Notes: generated by a model from the letters alone, not told the origin. DNA of 64,000 nt from Christensenellales bacterium (GCA_040768925.1 JAXGLZ010000001.1:607016-671015), one strand, 5' to 3'. Counted from the first letter of the stretch, positions 8,567-10,249 are shown. A program made the numbers and translations.

Positions 8567-8582
8567 CGCCTGAAATCAAACG

Positions 8583-8887
8583 CCCGGGCGGCCGATGCGT
8601 CATGCCCGGGCGTTAGGCCGGCTGGTTTTTCGCTTCGCGCAGGGTCGTCGTCGGCGAAGCCGACATCATTCCTTGATGAAATACCGTAATCTGCGATTTC
8701 GGTTCAGCCGGCAGGAATCCTTGTAAAAGTGCCGGAATCTGCGATTTCAGCGAAAGAAATTTCGGCCACAAGTGACCGAAATAATGCGTCAAAAGTTGAT
8801 TGAAGCTTAGGGGCTGGGGTCCCTGAATCGTGGGATAGGGTTTTTTTACAGTCTGGCCCGGGCGGCCGATGCGGCATGCCCGGGCGT
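8583..8887 (+). repeat. Type-1 modular hairpin repeat, copy A (element about 8614-8856), bracketed by two copies of the comFC/GT2 terminator core
   Basis: The 31-bp CCCGGGCGGCCGATGCG(T/G)CATGCCCGGGCGT occurs at 8583-8613 and 8857-8887 (30/31 identical). The interior shares modules with copies at 14.6, 37.4 and 46.3 kb, including TTCGCTTCGCGCAGG, the palindrome TTTCGG(C/T)CACAAGTGACCGAAA, and GTTGATTGAAGCTTAGGGGCTGGGGTCCCTGAA. Confidence 0.8.
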
Positions 8888-8893
8888 TTGATT

Positions 8894-10249
8894 TTAGGAG
8901 GGCGCTTCCCATTCGCCTTCGAAGACCGCCTCCAGGGCCCAGATCTCCATGGTCAGCAGGCAGACGAACCAGGGGTCCGAATGGTCAAAAACGACGGAAT
9001 CCAATTCGTTCCGGCCGTTGTGGTGGAAAAAGGGGGTCACTTCCAGCTCTTTTCCCGAAGCGAGCACAATGACCGCCCGCTTCAGGCTGACGCGGCAGGG
9101 GTATTCCGCAGGGTCGAAGCGCAGCGCGGCGACCTGCTCGCCGATGGGGAAATGCGCCTTAAAATACCCCTTCAACGCCGCGCAGGAGGAGGTGCGCTCC
9201 TCCGAAAAGGCGGAAAGCAGCTCCGCGCTTTTGGAAAGCTGGGCGCTGGCCGCAAAATAAAGCTTCATCCGGTCCGGCAGCTCGCAAAAAACGTCGTGCT
9301 GGGCGGCGAGGGCGTAAAGGGCGGTTTCGGTGAACCCGGATTTGCGCAGGGCCTGGCGGCTTTCCGGTTCGCCCAGCAGGGAATAGATCCCCCGAATGCC
9401 CCAGGCCTGGGCCGCGCGGCAAAGCGAAAGGGCGGATCGGTACGCCACGAATTTGCGAAAGGGCTCGTTCCCCGTCTCGCCGAAGACCGCAAGGCAGTCC
9501 GGCTCGGAAAGGGCGGCGTAGTTTTCCAGCACCAGGGGAAGCTCGTGCTCGATGAGCGTCATGGTCGAGGGGGTCCTTCCGCTGGCGTTGCCCCGCTTGC
9601 CGACGATGCGGAACCGGGTCAGCCGTTCCGGCAGCACGGCGATTTCCTCCCCGGCGGAAAGCAGCCGGGTCCAAAGCTCGTAATCCGGCAGCTTGCAAAG
9701 CCGGGTATCCAGCCGGAAGCGGAAATTCTTCCTTTTTGCCAGCAGGGTCGGGTGGCAAAGGCAGTTGCCTTCAAAAAAAAGCTTTTTCAGCCAGCTTGTC
9801 CGGGATCGGTTCTTTTGGTCGAAAAGGGGACCGGGGTACCCCCCGTGGCGGAGTTTTTCACCGGATTCCCCCACGATCTCCGCCCAGGTGAAGGAAGCGG
9901 CGAGGTTCGGCCGCGCCTCCATAAAGGCGAGCTGGCGTTCCAGCTTTGCCGGAAGGAATTCGTCGTCCGAATTGATCACGGCGACGTATTCGCCGGAAGC
10001 GACGTTCCAAAGGTCGTTCATCACAGCCGAAGCCCCCCGGTGAATCCCCGCGTCGATCACCTTGACGGGGATCGGCGCCCTGCCCGCGCGCTCGTGGATG
10101 ATGTTCCGCGTTCCGTCCGCCGAAAGGTCGTCCCCCACGATCAGCTCGATGTTGTTAAGCGTCTGGCAAAAGACGCTGTCTATGGCGGAGCCGACGAAGG
10201 CGGCGTGCTCGTATGCGGGCATGATGACGGAAACCTTCGGCCTGCTCAC
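8894..10249 (-). CDS. Family 2 glycosyltransferase with ~200-aa uncharacterised C-terminal extension
   Basis: GT-A N-terminus VSVIMPAYEHAAFVGSAIDSVFCQTLNNIELIVGDDLSADGT. The GTG start at 10249 overlaps the upstream stop (GTGA). The track ORF extended to 10618 overlaps the DegT gene and is not credible. Confidence 0.8.
   Translation of the reverse strand: MSRPKVSVIMPAYEHAAFVGSAIDSVFCQTLNNIELIVGDDLSADGTRNIIHERAGRAPIPVKVIDAGIHRGASAVMNDLWNVASGEYVAVINSDDEFLPAKLERQLAFMEARPNLAASFTWAEIVGESGEKLRHGGYPGPLFDQKNRSRTSWLKKLFFEGNCLCHPTLLAKRKNFRFRLDTRLCKLPDYELWTRLLSAGEEIAVLPERLTRFRIVGKRGNASGRTPSTMTLIEHELPLVLENYAALSEPDCLAVFGETGNEPFRKFVAYRSALSLCRAAQAWGIRGIYSLLGEPESRQALRKSGFTETALYALAAQHDVFCELPDRMKLYFAASAQLSKSAELLSAFSEERTSSCAALKGYFKAHFPIGEQVAALRFDPAEYPCRVSLKRAVIVLASGKELEVTPFFHHNGRNELDSVVFDHSDPWFVCLLTMEIWALEAVFEGEWEAPS

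Follow-up and report, generated by a model that had tools for sequence, protein, structure and literature searches.

A family of miniature transposable elements with IS1182-type ends lies between duplicated terminator hairpins in a Christensenellales bacterium

A stretch of 64,000 nucleotides from a Christensenellales bacterium (GCA_040768925.1, JAXGLZ010000001.1:607016-671015; hereafter the window) carries, between the convergent genes comFC and a GT2 glycosyltransferase gene, a short element that interrupts the transcription terminator of both genes and is flanked by two copies of its hairpin. The element is one of six known paralogues of a new MITE family (MITE, miniature inverted-repeat transposable element) that falls within the known IS1182 family of insertion sequences (ISs) and does not represent a new type of element. 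Quite probably this non-coding family was derived from, or is mobilised in trans by, IS1182-family ISs of the ISCbo5/ISBspe1-like clade. The paralogues measure 163 to 301 bp and are 60 to 84% identical (n = 6), and five of the six are bracketed by a locus-specific duplicated hairpin of 24 to 34 bp that exactly abuts both element ends. They are small, multicopy and polymorphic in their insertion, and no open reading frame is conserved among them, those that run across the element not being common to different copies. The host belongs to a Christensenellales lineage represented by metagenome-assembled genomes and metagenome contigs only.

The first copy (copy A; all coordinates are on the plus strand unless noted) lies between the comFC stop at 8566 and the convergent GT2 stop at 8894. 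The insert of 241 bp (8615 to 8855) separates a left target-site duplication (TSD) of 33 bp (8582 to 8614, reading GCCCGGGCGGCCGATGCGTCATGCCCGGGCGTT) from a right TSD of 33 bp (8856 to 8888), and each comprises the GC-rich stem-loop of the terminator. The two repeats, GCCCGGGCGGCCGATGCG[T/G]CATGCCCGGGCGTT, match at 32 of 33 positions and abut both ends of the insert; in a related strain (L009, GCA_964425015.1) the repeat is perfect (34/34). Outside them remain the unduplicated outer arms of the original bidirectional terminator, which were delimited by comparison with an empty site and now stand about 300 bp apart: AAATCAAAC on the left (8573 to 8581) and, on the T-tract side, TTGATTT on the right (8889 to 8895; also delimited as TGATTT, 8890 to 8895). 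An initial annotation of this DNA had described an inserted element bracketed by a hairpin repeat, and that description holds, with its coordinates shifted by 1 to 2 nucleotides and the repeat set at 33 bp. The small hairpins it listed (GTCGGCgaaGCCGAC, CATCAttcctTGATG, TTTCGGCCACAAGTGACCGAAA, and GGGGCTGGGGTCCC) and the element end GGTTTTTTTACAGTCT (also written GGTTTTTTTACAGTCTG) were all located in copy A.

Sister lineages that keep the synteny comFC - GT2 - DegT - ABC - mreB provide the state before insertion. The 60-nucleotide comFC/GT2 intergenic region of one of these (L019; ComFC 86% identical), which shows site A, reads caatcaaacGCCCGGGC...GCCCGGGCGttttttt and contains the hairpin exactly once (aaacGCCCGGGCGGCCGATGCGGCTTGCCCGGGCGttttttt), in agreement with the earlier proposal that the two genes had shared a single hairpin. 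At site B, mreB is followed by a single hairpin (aatCGCGGAGCCGctttgCGGTTCCGCGtt) in another lineage (L020; ComFC 72% identical), and a third (L026; ECF-S 92% identical) has a single hairpin at each of the sites E and F described below. Sites A, B, E, and F are thus occupied in the host species and vacant in sister lineages, none of which has two hairpins at such a site, and no element copy was found in the 73.6 kb of sister-lineage DNA searched. Because each of the four empty sites holds one hairpin, the repeats are genuine target-site duplications, made from an intrinsic terminator already in place. That every locus has copied the hairpin it possessed beforehand rules out an element that carries a hairpin along or that recombines site-specifically through an element-borne hairpin. 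Of the two origins that the initial annotation had offered, an element that targets and copies terminator hairpins is therefore the one that stands, on the strength of five of the six copies and the four empty sites.

The recurrence of the family on the plus strand near 14.6, 37.4, and 46.3 kb, also anticipated in the initial annotation, was recovered by repeat, pattern, and nhmmer searches, while shuffled sequence controls gave zero matches. That copies B and C are likewise bracketed by duplicates of their own local hairpins had gone unmentioned. Copy B (14650 to 14812; found by pattern and nhmmer) is a short form of 163 bp that lies between direct repeats of the mreB terminator hairpin at 14622 to 14649 and 14813 to 14840, the right one of which scores as an intrinsic terminator. 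Copy C (37412 to 37678), the best preserved, has 267 bp, ends in CAGGGCGTCAAAAAAGGCC... and ...GGGGTTTTTCGACAGTCTG, and lies between direct repeats of the queT terminator hairpin (37386 to 37411 and 37679 to 37704). Copy D (46223 to 46414) is a degenerate form of 192 bp with an SDR gene and deoC as its neighbors in an operon. The sole match in a metagenome collection, a short contig (L008), led by way of the adjacent folate ECF-S gene to a contig of 203 kb from the host species (GCA_040769605.1), which holds copy E (174 bp; repeat of 25 to 29 bp) and copy F (301 bp; perfect repeat, 28/28 bp). In the remaining copies the repeat length is 34/34 (the related strain) or 32/33 (the window) for A, about 26 to 28 bp for B, and 24 to 26 bp for C. 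The left junctions vary as well (..GCGTT|, ..GCCGTT|, and ..GCGTCCC|), and no further copy was present in 6.5 kb of DNA beyond the window edge.

The termini of the element connect it with a known family. They read 5'-CAG...CTG-3', and just inside each tip is a GC hairpin with A/T runs on its two sides; read inward, both ends begin CAGnnnGTC(A)5-6 before the GC hairpin, and in copies B, C, E, and F the inverted tips match at 10 to 11 of the 16 outermost positions. The left end common to the copies is (C)AGGGCGTCAAAAAAGGCC-loop-GGCCTTTTT, and the right end is CCCC-loop-GGGGTTTTTCGACAGTCTG. We compared these ends with an unannotated copy of ISCbo5 on plasmid NC_015418, which encodes a transposase with DUF772 and DDE_Tnp_1_6 domains. 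Starting with CAGGCTGTTGA on the left and closing with AAAAGCCTCC-loop-GGAGGCTTTTTGAACAATCTG on the right, this IS copy is bracketed by two perfect repeats of 30 bp that form part of a terminator hairpin. Six further IS1182-family ISs were obtained by tblastn on plasmids, with duplications of 23 to 26 bp in E. faecium, 32 bp in B. cereus pBCXO1, 18 to 19 bp in C. estertheticum, 19 bp in B. subtilis, 23 bp in R. leguminosarum, and 20 bp in A. pseudofirmus (ISBspe1); in four of the six, the duplicated stem-loop lies between an A-run and a T-run. The seven plasmid ISs are found at L031 35676-37348, L033, L036, and L037 to L040. In all seven inspected ISs of the clade, the tips read CAG...CTG, a hairpin follows each of them inward, and the stem-loop duplication, of 18 to 32 bp, is perfect, so that a hairpin-length duplication abutting CAG...CTG ends is seen in 7/7 ISs and 5/6 MITE copies. 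The repeat range given in ISfinder for the IS1182 family is 0 to 60 bp. From the 14 ends of the seven ISs an end consensus of 18 positions, CAGACTGTTGAcAAAccC, was derived, to which the MITE right ends conform at 12 to 16 positions: 16/18 in copy C (CAGACTGTCGAAAAACCC) and 15/18 in copy A, whose right end (8819 to 8855) consists of a hairpin, a T-run, and ACAGTCTG-3'. The view in the initial annotation that a duplication this long is not produced by a classical IS is contradicted by these seven ISs, and the match to a described family that it had thought would tell against its reading does exist, at the level of the IS1182 family.

The same ISs bear on the other origin that the initial annotation had offered, by replication or repair, in which template switching or slippage at a hairpin would have duplicated it and captured filler DNA. 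Palindromes are hot spots of template switching, and copy A itself shows strain-level slippage of a 12-nucleotide unit and deletion of a hairpin. Against such events, one core of about 160 bp recurs at five loci with its termini exactly conserved, each time flanked by a different duplicated hairpin, and these termini match a transposase-encoding IS family that makes the same duplications. An origin of this kind is unnecessary for explaining the data, and we regard it as extremely improbable.

Several described systems share parts of this behavior. In Clostridium botulinum group III, ISCbo5 occupies hairpins at gene ends at all of its chromosomal sites except one (PMC3098183). The ISCbo5/ISBma2-like and ISBspe1-like ISs of Clostridia and Bacilli resemble the MITE in their termini, 5'-CAG(A/G)(C/T)TGT...CTG-3', in their end hairpins, in their insertion into terminator hairpins, and in the duplication of the stem-loop. 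They differ in being 1.5 to 1.6 kb long and transposase-coding, whereas the MITE has 163 to 301 bp and is non-coding, with a diverged left end and internal hairpin modules of its own. IS1272 and TnSha1 of staphylococci, which also belong to the IS1182 family, target stem-loops or terminators irrespective of primary sequence (PMC5678879, PMC4923244), a structure-specific targeting that the MITE shares. Both, however, delete the stem-loop that they target; IS1272 removes or replaces it, and no duplicate remains (PMC5678879, PMC4923244). The MITE duplicates what IS1272 loses, as in "pathway b" of the IS1272 authors' model, in which the whole stem-loop would be duplicated if the ends attacked a cruciform at its 5' feet and which they did not observe (PMC5678879). 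Replacement of the IS1272 type can be rejected for the MITE, given the stem-loop on both sides; only copy D lacks a repeat. MITEPye1 of Paracoccus yeei, an intergenic IS1182-derived MITE with 4-bp direct repeats (PMC11578231), is similarly non-autonomous, intergenic, and provided with IS1182-like ends, and differs from the present family in that the repeats here are hairpin-length. The short repeats of MITEPye1 accord with those of two more distant proteobacterial relatives, ISCfr1 (L034) and a Sinorhizobium IS (L035), which have only 4 to 6 bp. The contrast of these two with the seven plasmid ISs suggests that target choice in the IS1182 family differs between clades.

Other kinds of mobile DNA were considered and set aside. 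Elements of the IS200/IS605 type (PATE or REPIN), moved as single strands by an HUH transposase, make no duplication and insert 3' of a fixed tetra- or pentanucleotide; the long duplications and the differing left junctions exclude them here. A class C group II intron has ribozyme domains and a reverse transcriptase and inserts just after a terminator without duplication, and it is excluded by the size of 163 to 301 bp, the lack of an intron model match, and the duplications. Casposon or Cas1-like integration was considered and found no support. 

Across 12 independent insertions the duplication ranges from 18 to 34 bp (24 to 34 bp for the MITE and 18 to 32 bp for the ISs), with junctions at the feet of the stem. 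Its length follows the size of the hairpin and not a fixed stagger. As the duplication varies with the hairpin and the junctions lie at the stem feet, the target is most simply recognized as a structure. We propose that a DDE transposase from the ISCbo5-like clade, provided in trans, would bind the hairpin-containing ends of the element and pick the palindrome of an intrinsic terminator (A-tract, GC stem-loop, and T-tract), possibly as an extruded cruciform or a hairpin at a fork, in which the two feet would be adjacent. The element ends would then be joined to opposite strands at the two feet, and gap repair would copy the whole stem-loop, leaving the element between two local terminator copies. 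The parts of this scheme that we infer are which transposase acts and where it lies, the passage through a cruciform, and the polarity with which strands are transferred; the chemistry of IS1182 transposition is given as unknown in a review table (PMC6199540). A further version, in which an IS1182-clade transposase would act at the foot of an extruded terminator cruciform or of a replication-fork hairpin, DNA structure and not the enzyme would set the duplication length (18 to 34 bp), and the host would also have retained the MITEs, with the terminator-like hairpins they bring, as modular terminator or 3' untranslated region (UTR) cassettes, has some chance of being right, though a rather low one. 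Under it, retention of the cassettes by the host would account for the conservation of the internal hairpins and for the one orientation that the six copies share.

A number of observations weigh against a derivation from, or mobilization by, IS1182-family ISs. The left ends of the MITE keep CAG..GTC.AAAAA yet match the IS consensus at only 7 to 10 of 18 positions. Neither a transposase gene nor a full-length IS with the element ends (CAGGGCGTC...GACAGTCTG) was found in about 90 kb of species DNA, a negative that, for the transposase, rests on the called genes of the window and of the other fetched loci of the species. A 185,579-species genome collection, from which the host species is evidently absent, gave 0 loci when scanned for exact matches to the 3' module and to the left-end hairpin, and the element-motif scan of the metagenome collection returned the one short contig that led to copies E and F and nothing outside the host species. 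Only six paralogues are known. Copy D has no flanking duplication, its terminal hairpins and T-runs being eroded at both ends, and a hairpin adjoins its right end only. The cruciform, finally, is a conjectural step of the mechanism. In addition, a scan of viral contigs for the element pattern returned 0 loci, and BLASTN of copy C against plasmids gave no match.

The missing parent IS in the genome collection scans and the poor fit of the left end are also what would be expected if the MITE were mobilized by a transposase from outside the IS1182 family, either of the IS1202 family or an undescribed structure-specific enzyme, and the similarity of the ends were convergent. The IS1202 subgroup of the latter family is reported, in the abstract of the published version, to make target duplications of 24 to 29 bp (a figure absent from the preprint text), and long duplications are the feature that the IS1202 family shares with the MITE. 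Its ends, however, begin TGT or TaT/TgT, its repeat length is fixed for each subgroup, and hairpin targeting is not reported for it (bioRxiv 10.1101/2022.12.17.520857). The IS1202 family is excluded by the CAG...CTG ends of the MITE. More generally, the MITE repeat tracks hairpin size as it does in the seven IS1182-family ISs, and its right end agrees with their consensus at as many as 16 of 18 positions and shares their arrangement of hairpin and T-run. Mobilization by a non-IS1182 enzyme is thus improbable, and the ISCbo5/ISBspe1-like clade remains the preferred source.

Between the IS1182-type ends, the element has a modular interior. The left end is followed by GGTTTTyCGCTTCGCGCArGG and a 22-bp palindrome (P1), then by GCAAAA/GTTTTGATTGAAGCTC and a second hairpin (P2) that precedes the right end. 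In copy A, P1 (TTTCGGCCACAAGTGACCGAAAT) was placed at 8760 to 8782 by pattern search, and P2 (TAGGGGC tggg GTCCCTG; repeat family D3) lies at 8808 to 8825. A further module of three small hairpins (module M; repeat families D8 and D11) is present 0 to 2 times per copy at two different positions: 1.9 times in copy A (8647 to 8750), not at all in copy B, and in copy F additionally at the second position. The number of these modules, together with a perfect 43-nucleotide hairpin in copy C (37572 to 37614), accounts for the variation in length. The extra hairpin of copy C has a perfect 20-bp stem, CTGACGCCCCAGTTGTTGGCGCAGCCAACAACTGGGGCGTCAG, and is placed between GCAAAA and GTTTTGATTG; the same internal site holds a short version of the hairpin in copy D and a copy of module M in copy F, and it seems to accept extra hairpins.

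Strain comparison revealed further changes within copy A. Its left terminal hairpin is deleted, with loss of the left inverted repeat, in the window strain and in GCA_040769605.1, while two other strains (L009 and L014) retain AGGGCGTCAAAGCGGCCTGCGGGCCGCTTTGACGG at this end. The copy in the window strain is probably immobile after this loss. A 12-nucleotide unit, AAGGTCGTCGGC, occurs one, two, or three times depending on the strain, as expected of slippage (window, 8640-8660; L009, 3770-3800; L014, 850-895).

The interior raises the question of whether the element is instead primarily a module that works as an RNA or a terminator (a small RNA of the 3' UTR or an insulator, for example), that the host maintains, and whose mobility is incidental or past. 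P1 and P2 are retained in all copies, and their pairing is preserved where the sequence has changed, through an altered but still paired P1 stem in copy D (TCGGGC/GCCCGA) and G-U pairs in copy A. The element also folds far more stably than shuffled sequence (z of -5 to -12). The right-end hairpin and T-run of copy A score as a plus-strand terminator, an A-run and a T-run bracket the left-end hairpin of copies B and C (judged by eye), and the operon-internal copy D is the one that has shed its hairpins and T-runs. Palindrome symmetry can, however, persist by mutational template switching without selection, and the copies are species-restricted and polymorphic. A scan of three copies for sigma-70 promoters found no promoter-like site, and in Rfam 15 there was no match at the gathering score and only weak generic-hairpin matches at E <= 1, so that a described structured RNA family is excluded at gathering and permissive thresholds alike. 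Maintenance by the host as the primary explanation is very improbable; it is compatible with the MITE explanation and not needed for the data.

For the comFC/GT2 pair, the insertion has predictable consequences. The complete terminator of each gene, that is, the stem with its own U-tract, is predicted from the sequence to lie beyond the insert, and the convergent transcripts may overlap by about 300 nucleotides unless the terminal hairpins of the element stop them. In copy A of the window strain, only the right-end hairpin with its T-run scores as a terminator. In the host, 3' UTRs are lengthened by the element.

All six copies have the left end facing the upstream gene, and the four copies in the window are all on the plus strand. 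GC skew is positive on this strand over most of the 64-kb window, which suggests that it is the leading strand. With n = 6, the orientation bias is suggestive only.

The detailed studies of the IS1182 family, which concern only IS1272, describe hairpin deletion, whereas the MITE and the seven ISs show duplication and follow a common rule: they land in an intrinsic terminator, whose stem-loop is duplicated in full. This illustrates a way for a transposon to spread without damage to genes, with a terminator stem-loop left on each side. Twin terminators 160 to 300 bp apart provide a signature by which this IS1182-clade MITE family can be annotated, and the MITE offers a minimal substrate for tests of structure-directed integration.

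Other features were also noted. Directly after copy E, a leader of about 250 nucleotides upstream of the folate-family ECF-S gene (L008 190-470; L025 9700-9990) is probably a riboswitch. A c-di-GMP-II riboswitch scoring slightly above the gathering score lies on the minus strand at 32632 to 32717, and a tRNA-Arg(CCT) gene lies on the same strand at 33178 to 33254. Downstream of copy C, a non-coding block of about 1.8 kb (39350 to 41080) comprises six copies of a 170- to 210-nucleotide unit that are 80 to 96% alike, three on the plus strand and three inverted, with A/T-rich 110-nucleotide repeats between them (39981 to 40207). The block, which had no Rfam match even at E <= 0.01, possibly represents clustered paralogous genes for small RNAs.

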